Positions 20,741-51,752 of a stretch of 64,000 nucleotides of DNA are shown in pieces. The stretch comes from Desulfotomaculum sp. (GTDB taxonomy: Bacteria; Bacillota; Desulfotomaculia; Desulfotomaculales; Nap2-2B). The translations under genes and the position numbers were made by a program. The notes below the pieces were generated by a model. That model was given only the letters and a program-made list of their open reading frames with translations. It had not been told where the DNA came from and did no database searches. Within the stretch, counting starts at the first letter, position 1, and each line of letters starts with the position of its first letter. The stretch lies in contig DOTD01000017.1 in NCBI GenBank assembly GCA_003513005.1, forward strand, positions 758 to 64,757, in the 5' to 3' direction.

Positions 20741-20814
20741 GCGGGTGTAGCTCAATGGTAGAGCATCGGCCTTCCAAGCCGAGTACGTGGGTTCGATTCC
20801 CATCACCCGCTCCA
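20741..20814 (+). tRNA. tRNA-Gly (anticodon TCC)
   Basis: GCGGGTG acceptor stem, CGGC-CT TCC AA-GCCG anticodon arm, GTTCGATTC T-loop, encoded CCA. Confidence 0.97.
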
Positions 20815-38083: not shown

Positions 38084-39280
38084 TTAAATCTTAGCTTTCA
38101 GACCTTTGACAGCCTGTTCCAAACCGTCCACTGTCAGCTCAAACATGGGGAAAACTCTCCTGATCAAGCTTATCGACTCGGAGCCATAAAATGCTTGCCA
38201 GTATTTACCTGGGATAGGATTTAACCAGACTGAAAATTTGAAGTAAGAAAACAACCTTTGCAGCCAGGTAATGCCCGGTTCCTCGTTGTACTCCTCCCAA
38301 CTGATAATGCCGCCGGGCATCATCAACTCACCGGGCGACATACTTGCGTCCCCGACTATGATTAACCGGTAATCACGGCCGAGGTTATTTAAAACCTCTG
38401 TTGTAGAAAGAGAGTTTTTCTTCATACAGTAAGGATCAAGGTATAGGCGGTCATAAACACAATTATGAAAAAAGTAATATCTGGTGTCCTTGAAATGATT
38501 GATTTTGCTTGCGGCGTTAAAAAGCTGGCTGCACAACCTGGAATAAGGGTGCATGGAACCGCCGGCGTCCATCAGCAGGACAAGTTTAATAATGTTTTTT
38601 CTTGGCCTTTCCCAGACCAGTTCCAGGTTTCCTGCCTTTTTACAGGTAGCGTCAATGGTGCCTTCCAGGTCAAGTTCTTCCTTTGGCCCTTCTTCGTTGT
38701 AGCTCAGTTCGCGCAGCTTGCGCAGGGCTACTTCAAACTGGCGTGTAGTAAGGGTATCATCTGTGCGAAAATCACGGTAGCGCCTCTGGGCTGCAACTTT
38801 TACCGCGGAGTGATTTACTGATTCCCCCCCGATTCGTATACCGGCCGGGTTGTATCCCGAATGTCCAAAAGGAGAAGTGCCTCCGGTTCCAATCCAGCGC
38901 CCTCCTCCATGATGTTGTTCCGTCTGCTGGTTCAACCGTTCTTCAAGCGCTTTGCGCAGTTCTTCCAAATCCCACGGGCTGAAAGGCTTACGCTCGTTCT
39001 GATCAATTTGCTTTGGCGGCAGCGATTTTTCAAGCCATTTCATAACCCTTTCAGCAAGTTCCGGTGAGGTTTCAATATCCTGAAAAAAACGGTAGAAAGC
39101 AAGGTCAAAACGGTCAAAATACGTTTCGCTTTTAACCAGCAGCGAACGCGCCAGGTAATAGAAACCGTTCAGGCTGGCGCCGGACAATCCTTTGTGTAAG
39201 GCTTCCATCAAAGTCATCCATTCGGTCAGGGAAACAGGGACTCCTTCTTCACGCAGGGTATAAAAAAGTCCGGTAAACAT
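38084..39280 (-). CDS. VWA-domain protein (CoxE-like)
   Basis: GGRWIGTGGTSPFGH, MIDAS-like DAGGSM, VGDASM and WLNP motifs; start set at ATG 39280. Confidence 0.85.
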   Translation of the reverse strand: MFTGLFYTLREEGVPVSLTEWMTLMEALHKGLSGASLNGFYYLARSLLVKSETYFDRFDLAFYRFFQDIETSPELAERVMKWLEKSLPPKQIDQNERKPFSPWDLEELRKALEERLNQQTEQHHGGGRWIGTGGTSPFGHSGYNPAGIRIGGESVNHSAVKVAAQRRYRDFRTDDTLTTRQFEVALRKLRELSYNEEGPKEELDLEGTIDATCKKAGNLELVWERPRKNIIKLVLLMDAGGSMHPYSRLCSQLFNAASKINHFKDTRYYFFHNCVYDRLYLDPYCMKKNSLSTTEVLNNLGRDYRLIIVGDASMSPGELMMPGGIISWEEYNEEPGITWLQRLFSYFKFSVWLNPIPGKYWQAFYGSESISLIRRVFPMFELTVDGLEQAVKGLKAKI

Positions 39281-39290
39281 AATCTGTACC

Positions 39291-40157
39291 TCAATAACCG
39301 CGGCGGTTGCTGGTTGAAGACGTTTTCTTTTGAACGCCTCCCGCCTGCAGGCGTCGGAGGACAACTTCAAAATCCTGATTCTTCTTTAACAGGACACCTA
39401 AAAAGGGCAGGTCGGAACAGATTCGATTGTAACTTATCCCGCCTACCACAAGAGCCTGAACCCAGTCTAAGAGTTCGCTGGTGCTGGGTTTTTTCTGAAG
39501 GCCATTTATACCTCTAATCCAGTAAAAAGCGTTTAATGCTTCATCAAGCAGCGTTTTTTCCATATCGGGGTAATGCACCTTGATTATTTTCAGCATCATA
39601 TCTTCATTAGGAAAATCAATGTAATGAAAAACACAGCGCCTAAGAAATGCGTCAGGCAGTTCTTTTTCGGCGTTGCTGGTGATTACTACAATTGGCCTGT
39701 GTTTGGCGGTGATAGTCTCTTTGGTTTCCGGAATATAGAAATTCATAATATCAAGTTCCCATAAAAGGTCATTGGGGAACTCGAGGTCTGCCTTGTCAAT
39801 TTCATCAATCAGAAGCACGACGCGTTTATCTACATTAAAAGACTCACCCAGCTTGCCAAGTTTAATATACTGTTTTATTTCTGAAACGTCATGGTCGCCA
39901 AATTGACCGTCATACAATCGCTGGACTGTGTCATAAACGTAGAGTCCTTCCTGGGCTTTGGTGGTTGATTTAATATTCCAGATAATAAAATCAAGAGCCA
40001 AAGACTCGGCGATAGCCTTAGCCAGCATGGTCTTGCCGGTTCCCGGCTCACCTTTAATCAAAAGCGGTCTTCCCAGGGCAACAGCAATGTTTACAGTATT
40101 GCGCAGGTCGGTTGAGACCAGGTAACTTCCGGTACTGTCAAAAGCGGGTCTATCCAC
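39291..40157 (-). CDS. MoxR-family AAA+ ATPase (CoxD-like)
   Basis: GEPGTGKT, LLIDEIDKAD, TSNAEKELPDAFLRRC and PSTSEL motifs. Confidence 0.9.
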   Translation of the reverse strand: MDRPAFDSTGSYLVSTDLRNTVNIAVALGRPLLIKGEPGTGKTMLAKAIAESLALDFIIWNIKSTTKAQEGLYVYDTVQRLYDGQFGDHDVSEIKQYIKLGKLGESFNVDKRVVLLIDEIDKADLEFPNDLLWELDIMNFYIPETKETITAKHRPIVVITSNAEKELPDAFLRRCVFHYIDFPNEDMMLKIIKVHYPDMEKTLLDEALNAFYWIRGINGLQKKPSTSELLDWVQALVVGGISYNRICSDLPFLGVLLKKNQDFEVVLRRLQAGGVQKKTSSTSNRRGY

Positions 40158-40884: not shown

Positions 40885-42522
40885 TTATATTATTGTGTTT
40901 ATAAAAGCTTCCACCAGCGCAGGATCATACATTTTGCCCGAATATTTTCTAAGCTCTTCAAAAGCTTCCTCATGTGTCATACCCTTGCGGTATGGCCTGT
41001 CTGTTGTCATCGCGTCAAAACTGTCTGCGATTCGCATTATCCTGGCGGAGAGAGGAATGTTTTGACCGATCAGACCATCAGGGTAGCCGGTGCCGTCGTA
41101 ATTTTCATGATGATGTCTGACCAATGACACCAGGCCCTCCAGTGACAATAAAGGCCTGACAATATCGCTTCCCCAGACCGGATGCTGTTTGGTAATTTCC
41201 CATTCTTCAAACATCAGGGGACCATTCTTATTTAAAATATCGGCCTCTATATCAACCTTGCCTATATCATGAAGGTAAGCTCCGTACTTGAGCTCCGTTT
41301 TCTGCTCTTCAGGAAGGTCTATTCTTTCAGCGACTGCCACAGCATAGGACATTACTCTTTCCGAATGGGCAAATGTATACCTGTCCTTGACGTTGATAAT
41401 TGTTAAGAGAGCTTTAAAACAGTCAAACAAATCCTTTTCCGACTGGCTGAGGGAATATAACTGGTCGATGACGGAAAAGCAGATCCGGCTGCGGCTGTGT
41501 TTGGACTGGTAGCAGGCGTCGTCTGCGGATTTGACTAAATCCCTGGGCTTTTCTCCGTCCTCGGGGAAACAGGCCAAGCCCAAAGAGACGGTTATTTTTC
41601 CTCCCGGTTGGGTGTGATCGCCTTCAATAGAATATTTTTTTATTTTCTCTTCAATTTCGCCTGCTTTCTGCAAGGCCTCCAATCTATTGATACCCGGCAT
41701 TACTACGGCAAACTCATCCCCTCCATAGCGGGCCACAAAAGAAGGCGGAGATATCAGACCTTCCAGGATCCTGCCAATTTCTACAATAACCAGATCTCCT
41801 TTTTGGTAACCGTAGATGTCATTGAAAAATTTAAAATAATTTATATCAATCATAATCAGGGATACAGGTTTAGACCTGCCCCGTGCAATTTCCAACTCTT
41901 CAGTCAGCTTTTCATAAAAATGCCGGTGGTTGGTAAATCCGGTGAGGGTGTCAGTATTGGCGAGTGAGAGAAGCTGAACCTGTGTCCGCCTTTCAATGTC
42001 CGTAAGCCCGCCAATCAACCATGCTATGGTAAACAATATACCCGTATAAATTAAATCGATCTGAAAAGCAGGAGAAACAGTATGAATAAAAAACTGTCTC
42101 AGGTCGAGGACAAAGATTGCTGTACTGGCTATTAATGCGCTTAGGACACCTATGGTCTTACCATAGCTGCTGGCTGCAATAACCACCGGGACAAAAAGAA
42201 GCACCTTGGAACCGTCAAAGCCCTTTGTCAGATAAATTAGTGCCAAAATCAAGGGAAATAAAATGACCAGTAAAAGGGCTTCGCCTGTCCAAGGCTGTGA
42301 GCTGAACTTTTTCGATAAATATGGTATAACGACAACCAATAAGAATAAAACTACACCGGTATAATAATAAAGTGCAGTAAGATATACCTGACCGAGCTTA
42401 AAGCTAACATTCAGCGCCATGATGGCCAGAAAGACAACGAGTACGCAGATAATATGGGAGACAAGGATATGTTCAGCAAGCTCTTCTTTTCTTTTCGCCA
42501 GCGGGTGTATTTTTTCCGCCAT
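40885..42522 (-). CDS. Membrane-bound diguanylate cyclase / HD-GYP phosphodiesterase
   Basis: About 5-6 N-terminal TM helices, DTLTG..N, RYGGDEF, HSERV, HDIGK and HHENYDGTGYP motifs. Confidence 0.93.
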   Translation of the reverse strand: MAEKIHPLAKRKEELAEHILVSHIICVLVVFLAIMALNVSFKLGQVYLTALYYYTGVVLFLLVVVIPYLSKKFSSQPWTGEALLLVILFPLILALIYLTKGFDGSKVLLFVPVVIAASSYGKTIGVLSALIASTAIFVLDLRQFFIHTVSPAFQIDLIYTGILFTIAWLIGGLTDIERRTQVQLLSLANTDTLTGFTNHRHFYEKLTEELEIARGRSKPVSLIMIDINYFKFFNDIYGYQKGDLVIVEIGRILEGLISPPSFVARYGGDEFAVVMPGINRLEALQKAGEIEEKIKKYSIEGDHTQPGGKITVSLGLACFPEDGEKPRDLVKSADDACYQSKHSRSRICFSVIDQLYSLSQSEKDLFDCFKALLTIINVKDRYTFAHSERVMSYAVAVAERIDLPEEQKTELKYGAYLHDIGKVDIEADILNKNGPLMFEEWEITKQHPVWGSDIVRPLLSLEGLVSLVRHHHENYDGTGYPDGLIGQNIPLSARIMRIADSFDAMTTDRPYRKGMTHEEAFEELRKYSGKMYDPALVEAFINTII

Positions 42523-42544
42523 TTGATGTCACCTGTCTCCGCAT

Positions 42545-42567
42545 AAAAAAAGTGGGGGTATCCCCCC
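42545..42567 (-). terminator. Terminator-like hairpin between agrD and the GGDEF/HD-GYP gene
   Basis: GGGGG-ATA-CCCCC followed by AC and T7 on the minus strand. Confidence 0.55.
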
Positions 42568-42584
42568 TTAATTGGCGCGTGTCA

Positions 42585-42716
42585 TTATTTTCTTAAGCTT
42601 TTTGGAAGTTCGGGCTGATAACACATTATCATACAGGTAGGCCTAACACTAAACGCAGCCAGAAGGACCAGAACACTGAAAAAGGACGAAAAGACAAAGT
42701 AGGAAAACTTTTTCAT
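42585..42716 (-). CDS. agrD: AgrD-like cyclic lactone autoinducer propeptide (43 aa)
   Basis: MKKFSYFVFSSFFSVLVLLAAFSVRPTCMIMCYQPELPKSLRK: amphipathic leader, Cys, then YQPxxP; strong SD; directly after agrB. Confidence 0.88.
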   Translation of the reverse strand: MKKFSYFVFSSFFSVLVLLAAFSVRPTCMIMCYQPELPKSLRK

Positions 42717-42736
42717 TTTTTTACACCTCCTTTCGC

Positions 42737-43360
42737 TTAAAATAGACTGTCTACTGTTGCTATAAGACGGTGGCCTGCTTGAGTCATGGAAAAGATTTGC
42801 CATAAAAGTCCCGCTTCTATGGCCAGAATTATCACTGTAGCCAGGGAAAGCGGACTCAATAAAAGAAAAGACACCTGAGCAGAAACCGCCAAGAAGACAA
42901 AAACTATTGAGAACAAACGCAATTGCCGCCTTTGTTTCTCAGAAGAAATGGGCTTTTTAGGCGACTCCACCGGGGCCAACCGCCATACTGCGGCCAGAGA
43001 TACTATAAAACCGCCGGCGATTACCAAAACCAGCGCAGAATATGAAAAATAAGGCGCTGCTATAACGGCCAGCTTGCCAAAAATCGAAACCACCATTATA
43101 CTGACCAAAATACAAACATAAGGAGAAGAGCTGTGAGCGCCGCCGGCGAAAGAGCGCAGCAACATTCCCACAGTTAAAACTATTAAGGTAACAACCAGAC
43201 ATTTAAGCAGCCATCCTGCAATGCACACCAGAAGAACACCTGCGCCGCCGTAGATAATCATCTCCAGGCTGTAAGCAGCGACTTCTTCTTCATCCCTGTT
43301 TAAACCCAGCCTGTCCTTTAAAAAACCTGCCGCAGATTTGGGGAGGTCTACTTTAAACAA
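42737..43360 (-). CDS. agrB: Accessory gene regulator B-like peptide-processing membrane protein
   Basis: LRSFAGGAHSSS...C (catalytic His/Cys) and APVESPKKP motifs; multi-TM. Confidence 0.9.
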   Translation of the reverse strand: MFKVDLPKSAAGFLKDRLGLNRDEEEVAAYSLEMIIYGGAGVLLVCIAGWLLKCLVVTLIVLTVGMLLRSFAGGAHSSSPYVCILVSIMVVSIFGKLAVIAAPYFSYSALVLVIAGGFIVSLAAVWRLAPVESPKKPISSEKQRRQLRLFSIVFVFLAVSAQVSFLLLSPLSLATVIILAIEAGLLWQIFSMTQAGHRLIATVDSLF

Positions 43361-43377
43361 AAATTAAATGCACTCCC

Positions 43378-43899
43378 TTAAGCTGAAATTTTTCCCCGCC
43401 GGCGGTTGTAATAATTTTTACCCAGAGCGACAGCCAGCAAAACCAACTCGTAGGGAAGGCTGTATAGTTCCCTGAGTACAGGGTTGGCAAAAAATTCTTC
43501 ATAGGTCCTGCCTGTTAAATTTAATAACGGCATCATATAAATCATTTCCACCAAACCACAAATTACAAAGGTCCCAATTACCGTCAGGAAAACCCTGCTC
43601 AAGCGAATCTTTGTGATCAAGTGCACATATACAGCCAGGGAAATGACAAGAACTACCGTATGAACACCAAAGGCAATGGGCAACAAGCGCACTAAATTGG
43701 TTACAGTCTGAAGTACGGCGATTGCGGTTATCTTTTTAAAATCAAATCTCAAGCAGAGGAAACTAAAAACAACCATCACACAGACTATACTTTCAGGAAA
43801 ATCCTGTATAAGTAAGGCGGTCAATTCTCTTGTCAATATTGCAGGCATGTATATCTTTCCAGTTCCTATATTTGTATCTGAACCCGGACTTTTCTTCAC
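43378..43899 (-). CDS. Hypothetical multi-TM protein upstream of agrB (resembles a stand-alone sensor domain)
   Basis: About 5 hydrophobic helices and no cytoplasmic kinase domain; start uncertain (GTG 43899 or ATG 43848). Confidence 0.7.
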   Translation of the reverse strand: MKKSPGSDTNIGTGKIYMPAILTRELTALLIQDFPESIVCVMVVFSFLCLRFDFKKITAIAVLQTVTNLVRLLPIAFGVHTVVLVISLAVYVHLITKIRLSRVFLTVIGTFVICGLVEMIYMMPLLNLTGRTYEEFFANPVLRELYSLPYELVLLAVALGKNYYNRRRGKISA

Positions 43900-47092: not shown

Positions 47093-47890
47093 TTAGAAAC
47101 CGATAATTCTTTTAAGCTTTTTTGCCTGTGCGCGGCTTACAGGGACTTCGCTTTTTTCTTTATCATCCACTATGAGGTTGTATGTCCCGTTAAAAAAAGG
47201 GACTATTTCTTTTACTTTATGCAGGTTGACCAGGTAACACCGGTGAGTTCTGAAAAATACTTTCGGATCTAAACGTTTTTCGAGTTCCTTTAAAGTAAAT
47301 CTTACAAAAAGTTTTTCATCAAAGATCTTTAAATAAACGTAATCTTTTTCCGTAAAGGCAAAAACGAGATCTGATTCAGGCACCAGGACTGTTTTTCCTT
47401 TCTTTTCAGCAGGAATGCGGTCAATTTTAATCTGCTCCAAATCAAGGTTAATATCTGCCTGGTTGTAAACACTGGTTGTTTCCGCTTCCTCGATTTCTTG
47501 ATTTTCCAGGTTTGCTCCGGAATCACCGATTAATTTCAGGACTTTGTCAATAGCCCTTTTTAAGCGGCTGATTTCCACAGGCTTCAAAAGATAGTCGACA
47601 GCGTTGATATCAAAGGCTTTCACTGCATATTCATCATAGGCGGTAACAAAAATAACGAACGGCTTACAGGGGAGTTCCTGAATCGCCGCTCCCAATTCCA
47701 TACCGCTCATTCCGGGCATTGAAATATCAAGAAACAAAACCTGATAATCCAGCGCTTTTATTAATACAAGCGCTTCTTGCGCATTGGCGGCCTCGCCGAT
47801 AACTTCAATGTTGTCAAAGTTCTTCAAAGCAAAGCGTAATTCCTGCCGCGCCGGGTATTCGTCATCCACGATCAGAGCTTTCAATTTCAT
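47093..47890 (-). CDS. LytTR-family response regulator (LytT/YpdB-like)
   Basis: IVDDE, FLDISMP and DYLLKP receiver motifs; FFRTHRCYLVN LytTR domain. Confidence 0.92.
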   Translation of the reverse strand: MKLKALIVDDEYPARQELRFALKNFDNIEVIGEAANAQEALVLIKALDYQVLFLDISMPGMSGMELGAAIQELPCKPFVIFVTAYDEYAVKAFDINAVDYLLKPVEISRLKRAIDKVLKLIGDSGANLENQEIEEAETTSVYNQADINLDLEQIKIDRIPAEKKGKTVLVPESDLVFAFTEKDYVYLKIFDEKLFVRFTLKELEKRLDPKVFFRTHRCYLVNLHKVKEIVPFFNGTYNLIVDDKEKSEVPVSRAQAKKLKRIIGF

Positions 47891-49178
47891 TTCTATTCTC
47901 CTCCCCGTCCACATGTTTGAGATCCAGTGGAACCCGGAAAAATACAGATGTACCCATCCCGGGTGTGCTTTCTATTTTTAAGCCGTAATCTTCACCAAAC
48001 AAGCTCTTCAAACGTTCGTTTACATTACTGAGGCCGACGCCGTTTCCCGAACCTACGCCAGGTTTAAGAATTTCAGGCAGCCTTTCCGGGTGGATTCCCA
48101 CACCGTCATCATTTACCTCAAATAAGATTTCCCCGTCAGCGAGGCTGGCGGTAATTTTTACTGTTCCTTTGCCTAGCTTGGGTAATATACCGTGCTTGAT
48201 CGCGTTTTCGGCCAGCGGTTGAATAGTAAGTACAGGCACCTCGCAGGATAAAAGAGTATCGTCGATATCCTTCATTATTTGCAGCTTCTCACCAAAACGC
48301 GCTTTTTCCAGAACAAGATATGTATTCAAATACTCAATTTCTTCTTTCAGGCTGTTGAAATGTCCTCTTCTTTTAAGCGCATAACGAAAAAAACTGGCCA
48401 GACGGATCAACAGGCGTCTGGCTGTTTCGGGATTCGTCCGGATAAACATGATAATGGTATTTAAAGTATTAAACAGAAAATGCGGGTTAATTTGCGCCTG
48501 AAGAGCTTCCAGTTCCGCCTTGGTAACCAGTTGGGTCTGCCGGTTCAGTTCCGCTAATTCCATCTGCATTCCAAATAAATGAGCCAGCCCGACAGACAGT
48601 TTCACTATTCCTTCCGGTACTTTGCCGGGTTTTGACTGGTATAGTTTTAATGCCCCGGTTACTTTTCCGTTGCATTTCAAAGGAGCGATCACGGCGGACT
48701 CCAAAGGACAGTTTGGAAAAGGACATTTCAAATCATATGGGTTATTCAATATTTTTAACTCCCCGCTGTAAAGCGCCGCCTTGGTGGCTTCTGTAAGAAC
48801 AGGTCCTCCCGCTTTATGGTGATCGTCTCCCGAACCGATGTAGGCAAGTATTTTTTCTCTGTCGGTGATCGCTACTGCAGCGACTTGAGAAATCTCTTTT
48901 ATTATAGCCGCCGTTTTAGCAGCTGTTTCTTCACTAAGACCCCGTCTTAAAAAAGGCAAAGTCTCATTGGCAATCTGGAGCGTGAGATCGGCAAGGCTTT
49001 TCTCTAGCTTGATATTTTGAAGTTTCTGCCTGTAGACAAACCTGTCCATCCCTAAAGCTGTTAGAATATTGGATATGAGCAGGACAATCGCACAATGCCA
49101 GATTAAAGGTTTCCATAAGATTAGTAATGCCGCAGCTGCAATATTAAGCGGCAGCCACCAGATAAGTATCCCGCGCAA
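47862..49178 (-). CDS. LytS/YpdA-type sensor histidine kinase with a short 2-TM N-terminus and GAF domain
   Basis: LQAQINPHFLFNTLN, EKARF, QPLAENAIKHG, DDGVG and GVGLSNV motifs; start uncertain (TTG 49178 has an SD). Confidence 0.9.
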   Translation of the reverse strand: MRGILIWWLPLNIAAAALLILWKPLIWHCAIVLLISNILTALGMDRFVYRQKLQNIKLEKSLADLTLQIANETLPFLRRGLSEETAAKTAAIIKEISQVAAVAITDREKILAYIGSGDDHHKAGGPVLTEATKAALYSGELKILNNPYDLKCPFPNCPLESAVIAPLKCNGKVTGALKLYQSKPGKVPEGIVKLSVGLAHLFGMQMELAELNRQTQLVTKAELEALQAQINPHFLFNTLNTIIMFIRTNPETARRLLIRLASFFRYALKRRGHFNSLKEEIEYLNTYLVLEKARFGEKLQIMKDIDDTLLSCEVPVLTIQPLAENAIKHGILPKLGKGTVKITASLADGEILFEVNDDGVGIHPERLPEILKPGVGSGNGVGLSNVNERLKSLFGEDYGLKIESTPGMGTSVFFRVPLDLKHVDGEENRNEIESSDRG

Positions 49179-49301
49179 TATACTCCTGTCCGTTTTCCAG
49201 CCCCCTAGCCATAGACTGAATATTTGTAAACATTCGTCATTTAAAGCTGTTTTTGCTTTCACAATTTTCTTTTAACTATTATAATTAAGGAAAAAGTAAA
49301 T

Positions 49302-50576: not shown

Positions 50577-50834
50577 ATGCCAAACATCAAGCCGGTTTCG
50601 GATTTGCGAAATTATAACGAGGTTTTGAGGGATGTTGCTGTGGGCGCGCCAGTCTTTTTGACGAAGAACGGCAGAGGACGTTATGCGCTTATTGATATTA
50701 CAGAGTACGAGAAAATACAGGCGACAATCAAGCTGATGGGCGAACTTGCCAAGGGCCGGAAATCAGGCGAGGAAAAGGGATGGGTTTCACGTGAAGCTGT
50801 GAGAGCACATTTCAAAGAGAAAACCAGTGAATAA
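50577..50834 (+). CDS. Type II antitoxin, Phd/YefM family
   Basis: IKPVSDLRN and PVFLTKNGRG motifs. Confidence 0.9.
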   Translation: MPNIKPVSDLRNYNEVLRDVAVGAPVFLTKNGRGRYALIDITEYEKIQATIKLMGELAKGRKSGEEKGWVSREAVRAHFKEKTSE

Positions 50835-51159
50835 GCTTCATTATTCTCCGGAGGCTTTAAGTGACCTTGACGAAATATGGGCATGTATTTTTGAAGAATT
50901 ACAAAATTCCACCGCTGCCCAAAACACGGTGGATGGCATATTGGATAATATAGAAAATTTGCGAAAGTTTTCAGAAATGGGGGCGCCTCTGTGCTCAGTC
51001 ATAGAGGTTGAAGGCGATTACCGTTTTCTTGTATGCGGAAACTACCTTGCCTTTTACCGCGTCAAGGGCGAGGAGGTCAACATAGACCGCATATTATACG
51101 GCAGACGCGATTATCTGCGTATCTTGTTCGCCAATTCATCGGAAGAAGCCATCAAGTAG
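50827..51159 (+). CDS. Type II toxin, RelE/ParE family
   Basis: YSPEA..DL..I, YRFLVCGNYLAFYR and RILYGRRDY motifs; overlaps the antitoxin. Confidence 0.9.
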   Translation: MNKLHYSPEALSDLDEIWACIFEELQNSTAAQNTVDGILDNIENLRKFSEMGAPLCSVIEVEGDYRFLVCGNYLAFYRVKGEEVNIDRILYGRRDYLRILFANSSEEAIK

Positions 51160-51230
51160 AAACTAACATTTAGACCTTGTGTTTTGGGCAGAATAATGCT
51201 ATAATTATGTACAATAGAGGAGGCGCAGTC

Positions 51231-51494
51231 ATGCCGCAGATCAGACCGATTACGGATTTGAGAAATACCAACGAAATTTCCGACATCTGCCACGCCAAGA
51301 AAGAGCCAATTTTCATTACAAAAAACGGCTATGGTGATCTGGTAGTTATGAGCATTGAAACTTACGAAGCCATGCTGGAAGAACGGGAACTTGACGCCGC
51401 CATCATGGAAGCCGAGGCCGAGTATGCATCTGGCAGCCAGTTGTTGGATGCGAGGAAAGCTCTCTCCACATTAAGGAGACGGCACTTTGGATAA
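51231..51494 (+). CDS. Second Phd/YefM antitoxin
   Basis: IRPITDLRN and PIFITKNGYGDLVVMS motifs; SD before ATG at 51231. Confidence 0.9.
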   Translation: MPQIRPITDLRNTNEISDICHAKKEPIFITKNGYGDLVVMSIETYEAMLEERELDAAIMEAEAEYASGSQLLDARKALSTLRRRHFG

Positions 51495-51673: not shown

Positions 51674-51752
51674 TGGTCGGGGCGACAGGACTTGAACCTG
51701 CGGACCTCACGGTCCCGAACCGTGCGCTCTAGCCAAACTGAGCTACGCCCCG
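51674..51752 (-). tRNA. tRNA-Pro (anticodon CGG)
   Basis: CGGGGCG acceptor stem, CACGG-TT CGG GA-CCGTG anticodon arm, GGTTCAAGTCC T-loop, encoded CCA. Confidence 0.95.

Follow-up and report, generated by a model that had tools for sequence, protein, structure and literature searches.

A c-di-GMP enzyme as candidate receptor of a clostridial-type Agr cassette

For Gram-positive bacteria, the Agr system serves as the model of peptide quorum sensing, and in staphylococci a hypervariable region of the agr locus spans agrB, agrD and the sensor part of agrC. Most clostridial agrBD loci are called 'orphan', and peptide sensing in these systems is an open question. Cyclic di-GMP (c-di-GMP), in turn, controls motility, biofilm formation, toxin production and sporulation in Clostridia. 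Here, we analyzed an Agr cassette in a 64,000-nucleotide stretch of a Desulfotomaculum sp. contig (DOTD01000017.1), the whole of which is referred to as the window. In this cassette agrB and agrD are preceded by a gene for an orphan transmembrane (TM) protein, oTM, and followed by a gene encoding a six-TM (6TM) protein with GGDEF and HD-GYP domains, referred to as the enzyme. We propose with moderate confidence that this is a clostridial-type Agr cassette whose dedicated receptor would be a c-di-GMP enzyme instead of an AgrC kinase. Based on comparative sequence analysis, the enzyme is probably an unrecognised peptide receptor. For comparison, the receptor for AgrD1 of Clostridium difficile 'remains elusive' (PMC10602386).

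Like staphylococcal agrBDCA, the window cassette encodes an AgrB with catalytic His and Cys and an AgrD in which an amphipathic leader precedes a Cys-plus-four ring and the C-terminal tail is conserved, and has a multi-TM sensor gene immediately after agrD. It differs in having neither an AgrC (HPK10) kinase domain nor AgrA, the output being GGDEF plus HD-GYP, in the extra oTM gene before agrB, and in a sensor apparently related to 6TM_PilS. Gene order and AgrD motif (...SAC-x4-[YH]QPEEP...) are the same as in the agr locus of Clostridium perfringens and in agr-1 of Clostridium botulinum. These Clostridium loci have a DUF5317 gene upstream and an RxxD inhibitory site (I-site) in the enzyme, whereas the window has neither. 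No DUF5317 (CPE1563-like) gene is found upstream of the window oTM, its place being occupied by an alanine racemase gene. In the papers searched on C. perfringens and C. botulinum agr, agrBD is treated as orphan and the downstream GGDEF/HD-GYP gene is unmentioned. In its working the cassette resembles an agr system, though without AgrC and AgrA features, and it belongs to the clostridial agrBD locus type; its arrangement is not unusual for this genome and is that of the common clostridial agr locus.

Precedents for a quorum signal acting on c-di-GMP exist with fatty acids. RpfG of Xanthomonas, part of the RpfC/RpfG system for diffusible signal factor (DSF), is an HD-GYP phosphodiesterase and a response regulator downstream of a kinase, while RpfR of Burkholderia, the receptor for the Burkholderia diffusible signal factor (BDSF), is a cytoplasmic signal-binding PAS-GGDEF-EAL c-di-GMP enzyme. 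As in these systems, a cell-to-cell signal would set the c-di-GMP level, a resemblance in function only: their signals are fatty acids, whereas the cassette enzyme has a 6TM domain fused directly to GGDEF-HD-GYP. PilS-type kinases (PF25323), whose ligand is pilin, likewise begin with a membrane module of six helices and minimal loops; the cassette output differs in not being a kinase. Apparently, the literature searched holds no precedent for ribosomal thiolactone peptides or for Gram-positives. This search, which did not cover subscription journals, turned up no publication that connects agrBD with an adjacent GGDEF/HD-GYP gene, and within the same scope the link between cassette and enzyme, well supported by comparative genomics, is apparently unreported.

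Cassette layout and conservation of the agrBD-enzyme linkage

All four cassette genes are located on the minus strand in the order oTM-agrB-agrD-6TM-GGDEF-HD-GYP, with intergenic spacers of 17, 20 and 62 nt in gene order (Table 1). The open reading frames (ORFs) and gaps match the initial annotation, which had described four co-oriented genes with these spacers. Its identification of agrB, agrD, GGDEF and HD-GYP with intact motifs is likewise borne out by Pfam/TIGR04223 matches and conserved residues. The window cassette holds no AgrC-type kinase, since the gene after agrD encodes GGDEF and HD_5 domains without a kinase domain (Pfam), and no AgrA-type REC+LytTR regulator.

Table 1. Positions of the cassette genes, their domains and other features of the window.
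Feature	Position	Strand	Description
oTM	43378..43848	-	156-aa membrane protein, five predicted TM helices; first gene of the oTM-agrB-agrD unit
agrB	42737..43360	-	207-aa AgrD-processing membrane endopeptidase, TTG start; Pfam PF04647, E=1.1e-35
agrD	42585..42716	-	43-aa autoinducing-peptide precursor MKKFSYFVFSSFFSVLVLLAAFSVRPT-CMIMC-YQPELPKSLRK; TIGR04223, 35.9 bits, cut-off 19
Predicted five-residue thiolactone ring CMIMC	42621..42635	-	codons for AgrD residues 28-32; placed by AgrD alignment and read from the sequence
Terminator-like hairpin	42545..42567	-	GGGGGGATACCCCC at 42554-42567, then T-run; in the 62-nt spacer between agrD and enzyme gene
Enzyme gene	40885..42522	-	545 aa, 6TM-GGDEF-HD-GYP; no PAS, REC or EAL domain (Pfam)
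Sensor module	41968..42522	-	N-terminal ~185 residues, six predicted TM helices, very short outer loops
GGDEF domain	41491..41961	-	diguanylate-cyclase domain, residues 188-344, Pfam 2e-40; A-site GGDEF intact, SPPS instead of RxxD I-site
HD-GYP (HD_5) domain	40915..41409	-	c-di-GMP phosphodiesterase domain, residues 372-536, Pfam 2.2e-38; HDIGK and HHENYDGTGYP intact
Histidine kinase	47862..49262	-	PF06580 His_kinase, HATPase_c, GAF-like (SpoVT_C) region, about two TM segments
Response regulator	47093..47914	-	REC+LytTR; overlaps kinase ORF by 53 nt
tRNA gene	20741..20811	+	Rfam; with the next row the sole Rfam matches in the window
tRNA gene	51677..51752	-	Rfam
PhdYeFM-ParE-PhdYeFM	50577..51494	+	antitoxin-toxin-antitoxin cluster (precomputed Pfam hits, source contig)
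MoxR-like AAA ATPase and VWA (CoxE-like) genes	38084..40157	-	overlapping genes downstream of the cassette, past a HIT-family gene

The linkage between agrBD and the enzyme was surveyed from both sides. On the enzyme side, one genome per species was scanned for enzyme relatives, yielding 80 GGDEF+HD-GYP loci, which were then searched in all six reading frames using profile hidden Markov models (HMMs) for the TM domain, for AgrB and for oTM. This TM domain was present in 22 of the 80 loci, two of which lie at the very start of a contig. In all 20 evaluable loci agrB was found directly upstream on the same strand, and an AgrD ORF was present in all 19 TM-positive loci whose ORFs were read. By contrast, the proteins of the 58 TM-negative loci (from Bacillaceae, Paenibacillus, Dehalococcoidia and other taxa) have just the catalytic domains in common with the enzyme, and none of these loci showed an AgrB up to 8 kb away (TM-positive vs TM-negative, Fisher p=6.5e-17). 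The taxa carrying the cassette comprise Clostridium sensu stricto, Romboutsia, a Halanaerobiales metagenome-assembled genome (MAG), Desulfoscipio, Syntrophaceticus, Thermanaeromonas, Ammonifex and Pelotomaculum. Recurrence in other genomes, proposed as a check in the initial annotation, is thus seen, the linkage being widespread and specific to loci with this TM domain.

For AgrB, metagenomes were scanned with the motif LAPVDS[PA]xKP, derived from a 10-sequence AgrB subset, which yielded 64 loci, a sample biased towards the AgrB subfamily behind the motif. The sensor TM domain was directly downstream in 51 of the 58 evaluable loci, a kinase in 2 and nothing in 5, and the full TM+GGDEF+HD-GYP protein was encoded in 34 of the 41 loci having at least 2 kb downstream. 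An AgrB/oTM subgroup (L138, L141, L146 and L148) carries an AgrD of the form ...SVFAC(A/T)YI(S/A)(Y/H)QPKTPKSLQR, and no sensor, kinase or GGDEF gene was detected downstream in these four loci. A peptide related to this L138-type AgrD (SVFACGWLGYQPTAPKSLQK) is encoded in locus L126, followed by a kinase gene. In the genome of Pelotomaculum thermopropionicum SI (AP009389), agrB and agrD (ring CAGAW) are intact and unannotated between PTH_2129 (oTM) and PTH_2130 (GGDEF/HD-GYP; L086 6468-7334); loss of agrBD in this species, as the adjacent PTH_2129 and PTH_2130 might suggest, was therefore rejected.

Co-diversification of the sensor domain with the peptide

Co-diversification with the peptide is the strongest evidence for the enzyme as receptor. 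Across 59 cassettes, the four non-Cys positions of the AgrD ring are hypervariable (mean p-distance 0.87) between conserved flanks, and TM identity drops as ring differences increase in 5/6 bins of catalytic-domain identity. At catalytic identities of at least 95%, TM domains are 98% identical when rings are identical vs 80-91% when rings differ. In close pairs with different rings, catalytic domains are 93-99.7% identical, TM domains 63-91%, AgrB 56-93% and oTM 49-89%. Examples are L085/L013 (catalytic 95.5%, TM 63%, oTM 89%, AgrD 93% with one ring position differing), L007/L094 (catalytic 99.7%, TM 91%, oTM 77%, AgrD 81%), L113/L120 (catalytic 93.5%, TM 67%, AgrB 56%, oTM 49%), L020/L127 (catalytic 94.6%, TM 71%, AgrB 57%, oTM 60%) and L093/L149 (catalytic 96.6%, TM 77%, AgrB 58%). 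In these close pairs, sliding-window DNA identity drops across oTM, agrB, agrD and the start of the enzyme gene; it recovers to 91-100% at the TM/GGDEF junction or at most ~100-150 nt from it. Upstream, the flank was readable in three of these pairs and, as far as available, is 89-100% identical there. Of the four identical-ring pairs, three have about equal TM and catalytic identities (97/97, 85/88 and 85/88). The covariation which the initial annotation had suggested looking for is therefore found: the TM domain co-diversifies with AgrD and AgrB and the catalytic domains do not. This pattern resembles that of staphylococcal agr, where a hypervariable agrB-agrD-sensor block is likewise joined to a conserved cytoplasmic output. 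Judged from the alignments, such a block would be hard to explain were the TM domain of the enzyme unrelated to the peptide.

Several points weigh against the enzyme as receptor. The TM domain of one identical-ring pair (L051/L122) has diverged (75% vs 93% catalytic), the compared pairs are not phylogenetically independent, and TM domains in general evolve faster than catalytic domains. A partial Mantel test of ring vs TM distance controlling for catalytic distance gave a weak positive correlation (r=0.24, p=0.002) and could not tell the TM domain apart from oTM or AgrB; this type of test is prone to phylogenetic artefacts, and the close-pair mosaic analysis took its place. Neither the sensor nor oTM has a fold match in the PDB, so that structural support is lacking. 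In 16/21 cassettes, a hairpin followed by a T-rich stretch lies between agrD and the enzyme gene. Further, a LytTR two-component system is located 3.2 kb upstream of the window cassette on the same strand, and VirS/VirR has been reported as the receptor for the autoinducing peptide (AIP) in C. perfringens, which carries the cassette (PMC10602386).

The hairpin bears on whether the enzyme could be a regulatory neighbour instead of the receptor, with c-di-GMP controlling agr expression or AIP export, or with the enzyme being co-regulated and its TM domain sensing another membrane or envelope cue. The separation of the enzyme gene from agrD would fit this reading, as would the five AgrB loci without the enzyme and the occurrence of more distant members of the TM family without agr (L088). 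An unrelated cue would not predict a sharply bounded hypervariable block that includes agrD and agrB and ends at the TM/GGDEF junction, the linkage holds in 20/20 loci from very distant taxa, and no c-di-GMP riboswitch or other regulatory RNA was detected in the window by Rfam scan. We consider a mere regulatory neighbour quite unlikely. As regards the initial assumption of co-transcription, oTM, agrB and agrD either overlap or lie no more than ~50 nt from one another in almost all of 21 cassettes, whereas for agrD and the enzyme gene the assumption is weakened by the hairpin and T-run. Because the hairpin is present in most loci, co-expression is not required, and the terminator between the oTM-agrB-agrD unit and the sensor gene is probably leaky. 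The unit agrees with results from C. perfringens, where CPE1563-CPE1562-agrB-agrD were found to form one transcript by reverse transcription PCR (PMC2706048).

The statement of the initial annotation that no AgrC or AgrA is adjacent is correct for the immediate neighbours, but a kinase and a REC+LytTR regulator are encoded three genes upstream on the same strand, separated from the cassette by alr, nnr and acpS. A conventional two-component system alone might sense the peptide, either this pair (47093-49262) or a VirS-like kinase elsewhere, as the report on C. perfringens VirS/VirR would support (PMC10602386), leaving the enzyme outside Agr signalling. The window regulator does have the architecture of AgrA; the kinase, the only one in the neighbourhood of the window cassette, is of the PF06580 type, has roughly two TM segments plus a GAF-like domain and is not AgrC-like. 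In 20 other genomes, neither a response regulator nor another kinase is encoded up to 8 kb from the cassette. Because of this absence, we regard the LytTR pair as a neighbour, and its candidacy as a cognate AgrCA forming a conserved part of the cassette was rejected. A two-component system alone would also leave the conserved synteny and the co-diversification of the TM domain unexplained, and two receptors need not exclude each other. We therefore judge sensing by such a system alone to be very unlikely.

The enzyme, AgrB, AgrD and oTM

The closest named relatives of the enzyme are from Pelotomaculum, Desulfallas, Sporotomaculum and Moorella. The record of one 564-aa homologue (P0013, identity 49%) names it a diguanylate cyclase from a Klebsiella pneumoniae plasmid; this looks like a mis-assigned or contaminant record because the distribution of the enzyme is otherwise strictly clostridial. 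An AlphaFold2 (AF2) model of the sensor shows six TM helices joined by outer loops of 4-8 residues, with a predicted local distance difference test score (pLDDT) of 75. The window sensor gives a weak match to Pfam 6TM_PilS (PF25323; E=0.0022), its 18.1 bits falling short of the 27-bit cut-off, while homologues P0281 (34.8 bits) and P0263 (29.7 bits) score above this cut-off and a PF25323 hit is recorded for seven listed Clostridium orthologues of the enzyme, P0313-P0316 among them. The sensor TM domain probably lies in or near 6TM_PilS. No significant PDB match was obtained for it by sequence search, and Foldseek comparison of the model with the PDB returned nothing at E<0.5, the best hit being the 6TM region of adenylyl cyclase AC9 (query TM-score (TMq) 0.50, E=3.6). 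A HMMER search with residues 1-188 against 1.84 billion representatives yielded 49 relatives of the sensor module. Many of these are GGDEF-HD-GYP proteins of ~560 aa, as judged by length. Of 20 relatives of other lengths scanned with Pfam, 17 contain HATPase_c, most of them together with HisKA and with or without PAS, GAF or REC, and two of these kinases match 6TM_PilS.

A PilS-like membrane module with such short outer loops raises the possibility of intramembrane self-sensing, in which the 6TM domain would detect the membrane-bound AgrD precursor or leader, or an AgrB/oTM complex, instead of the extracellular peptide. The c-di-GMP level would then report the cell's own peptide production and not population density. 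Besides the 6TM_PilS relationship and the loops, the co-diversification of oTM and AgrB with the TM domain is compatible with self-sensing, and so are oTM paralogues that accompany the sensor even without agrBD (C. botulinum p150-HK1 pair), suggesting a membrane partner. Against this, divergence in L085/L013 is concentrated in the sensor TM domain (63%), with a single ring difference in an AgrD that is 93% identical and with oTM at 89%. AgrC likewise binds AIP by short loops. We regard self-sensing as unlikely and favour recognition of the cognate peptide by the TM domain.

In the GGDEF domain, D226, G238, G242, R265, G267 and F271 are invariant in the homologue alignment and N234 and D243 nearly so (at least 90%); the active-site motif and the residues for metal and GTP binding (D226, R265, N234 and D243) are intact. 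The initial annotation had taken the lack of an RxxD site as consistent with control coming from elsewhere. SPPS indeed stands at this site in the window protein, but the argument is not general: absence of the I-site is clade-specific, and orthologues from Clostridium and Romboutsia have RKED, REDD or REND there. The HD-GYP domain shows ten invariant residues in 34 homologues (H386, H418, D419, H447, H471, H472, E473, G479, Y480 and P481). Its HHE..G.GYP motif is intact in 22/22 tabulated cassettes, the window included, and HD[IV]GK is found in all of these except L004, where the pattern search also returned no GGDEF-type motif. Both catalytic sites of the window enzyme look competent. Because the HD-GYP residues are invariant and occasional relatives have a degenerate GGDEF signature (GSDEF, GNDEF or GGARF), the alignments suggest that hydrolysis is the more constrained output. 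In a Halanaerobiales MAG, two 6TM-GGDEF-HD-GYP genes follow agrD in tandem (L016 1477-3729).

The AgrB motif R69..G73 G74. H76 ...... C83 is present in the window protein, H76 and C83 being the catalytic residues. Among 24 cassette AgrBs, G73, G74, H76 and C83 are invariant and R69 is nearly invariant (at least 90%). The AgrD family motif C-x4-[YH][QE]P..P is common to the window and 58 other cassettes, that of C. perfringens (CLWFT) included. The window ring ends in a second Cys; a second ring Cys also occurs in the C. botulinum group (CVWCV, CYWCV), in Romboutsia (CMCLF) and in several metagenome cassettes (e.g. CYWCF).

The longest ORF for oTM spans 43378-43899 from a GTG at 43899, while the ATG at 43848 is backed by homologues and gene callers. 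No Pfam or NCBIfam family matched oTM. A profile search yielded 205 homologues, every one labelled 'hypothetical', including proteins of C. botulinum and Clostridium sporogenes as well as PTH_2129. Alignments of homologues show P18 as invariant and E19, R54, P57, G61, H63, E101 and P132 as conserved. The AF2 model has five helices (pLDDT 87); neither sequence search nor Foldseek comparison gave a significant PDB match, with nothing at E<0.5 and TMq at most 0.36 in the latter. Using profile HMMs in six reading frames, oTM was detected upstream of agrB in 19/20 genome cassettes, L015 (upstream of 6795) being the sole one without a detected oTM. In L008 (6008-7180), a tandem oTM pair precedes agrB. 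The protein lies inside the hypervariable block in most close pairs, L085/L013 being different in this respect, and a paralogue partners a C. botulinum sensor kinase without agrBD. A role in AgrD processing or export and a role as co-receptor with the 6TM sensor are both conceivable.

Studied clostridia and proposed mechanism

In C. perfringens (L090), the gene order is DUF5317-oTM-AgrB-AgrD(...TSACLWFTHQPEEPKSLRDE)-6TM-GGDEF-HD_5. This cassette corresponds to the known CPE1563-CPE1562-agrB-agrD operon plus the gene that comes next, which has been named only as the boundary marker CPE1560 (PMC2706048). Since AIP sensing in this species has been assigned to VirS/VirR, the enzyme may be an additional, parallel AIP receptor and not the sole one. 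DUF5317 is encoded upstream in both the C. botulinum and the C. perfringens loci (Pfam), and similar upstream proteins of ~181-189 aa are found in other Clostridium-type genome loci.

The C. botulinum cassette is agr-1 (L085) and has the same gene order as the window. It is followed by an oTM paralogue and a 617-aa PAS-HisKA kinase, and then by oTM2-AgrB2-AgrD2 and a second 617-aa kinase. Three sensors with one common TM module are thus encoded within 9 kb (L085 7271-16453, GCA_040733375.1). Over 183 residues, the TM domain of the C. botulinum enzyme shares 41.5% identity with that of the kinase next to it (E=1e-48), and its identity with the N-terminal part of the kinase that follows agrD2 is 34%. 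By size and architecture, the two kinases agree with CBO0336 and CBO0340, orphan kinases of C. botulinum that are listed as uncharacterised (PMC11210211). Further, a metagenome locus (L089) has the order kinase(6TM)-oTM-AgrB-AgrD-enzyme, with kinase and enzyme flanking agrBD. Because the same TM module is carried by the enzyme and by kinases after agrD, the receptor position of agr loci is occupied by one sensor module with alternative outputs, and the kinases with this module fit a receptor module with interchangeable outputs.

Based on these comparisons, we propose the following mechanism. The tightly packed oTM-agrB-agrD genes would form a transcription unit from which AgrB, probably helped by oTM, would turn AgrD into a released five-residue thiolactone with the predicted ring CMIMC. 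Behind the probably leaky terminator, the next gene would provide the 6TM sensor fused to an apparently intact GGDEF cyclase and HD-GYP phosphodiesterase. The TM module would recognise the cognate peptide within or at the membrane, and recognition would shift the balance between c-di-GMP synthesis and hydrolysis, so that cell density would be converted into a second-messenger level. Both peptide binding to the TM domain and its effect on catalysis are what we infer from sequence comparison. As to polarity, we suggest with low confidence that the peptide favours HD-GYP activity and lowers c-di-GMP. This guess derives from clostridial sporulation, for which a positive role of Agr and a negative role of c-di-GMP are reported in passages of PMC10602386 and PMC3673130 (citing Cooksley et al. 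2010). A peptide that lowers c-di-GMP would be a parallel to DSF/RpfG.

In its broadest form, to which we give an even chance, the proposal is that Clostridia possess widespread, unrecognised AIP receptors in which a 6TM specificity module co-diversifying with AgrD and AgrB is carried by a GGDEF/HD-GYP enzyme or by orphan HisKA kinases, and that oTM is a new accessory of synthesis or sensing. If the enzyme is a receptor, cell density would feed directly into c-di-GMP, and the enzyme would be the first quorum-sensing receptor to link a peptide directly to c-di-GMP. Candidate receptors would become available for orphan agrBD loci in C. perfringens and in species of the C. botulinum group, and these candidates would be testable in the genetically tractable species C. 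perfringens and C. sporogenes, while the boundary between sensor and output would provide natural domain swaps for peptide specificity. Such a receptor would also account for the broad phenotypes of clostridial agr mutants that are not fully covered by VirS/VirR.

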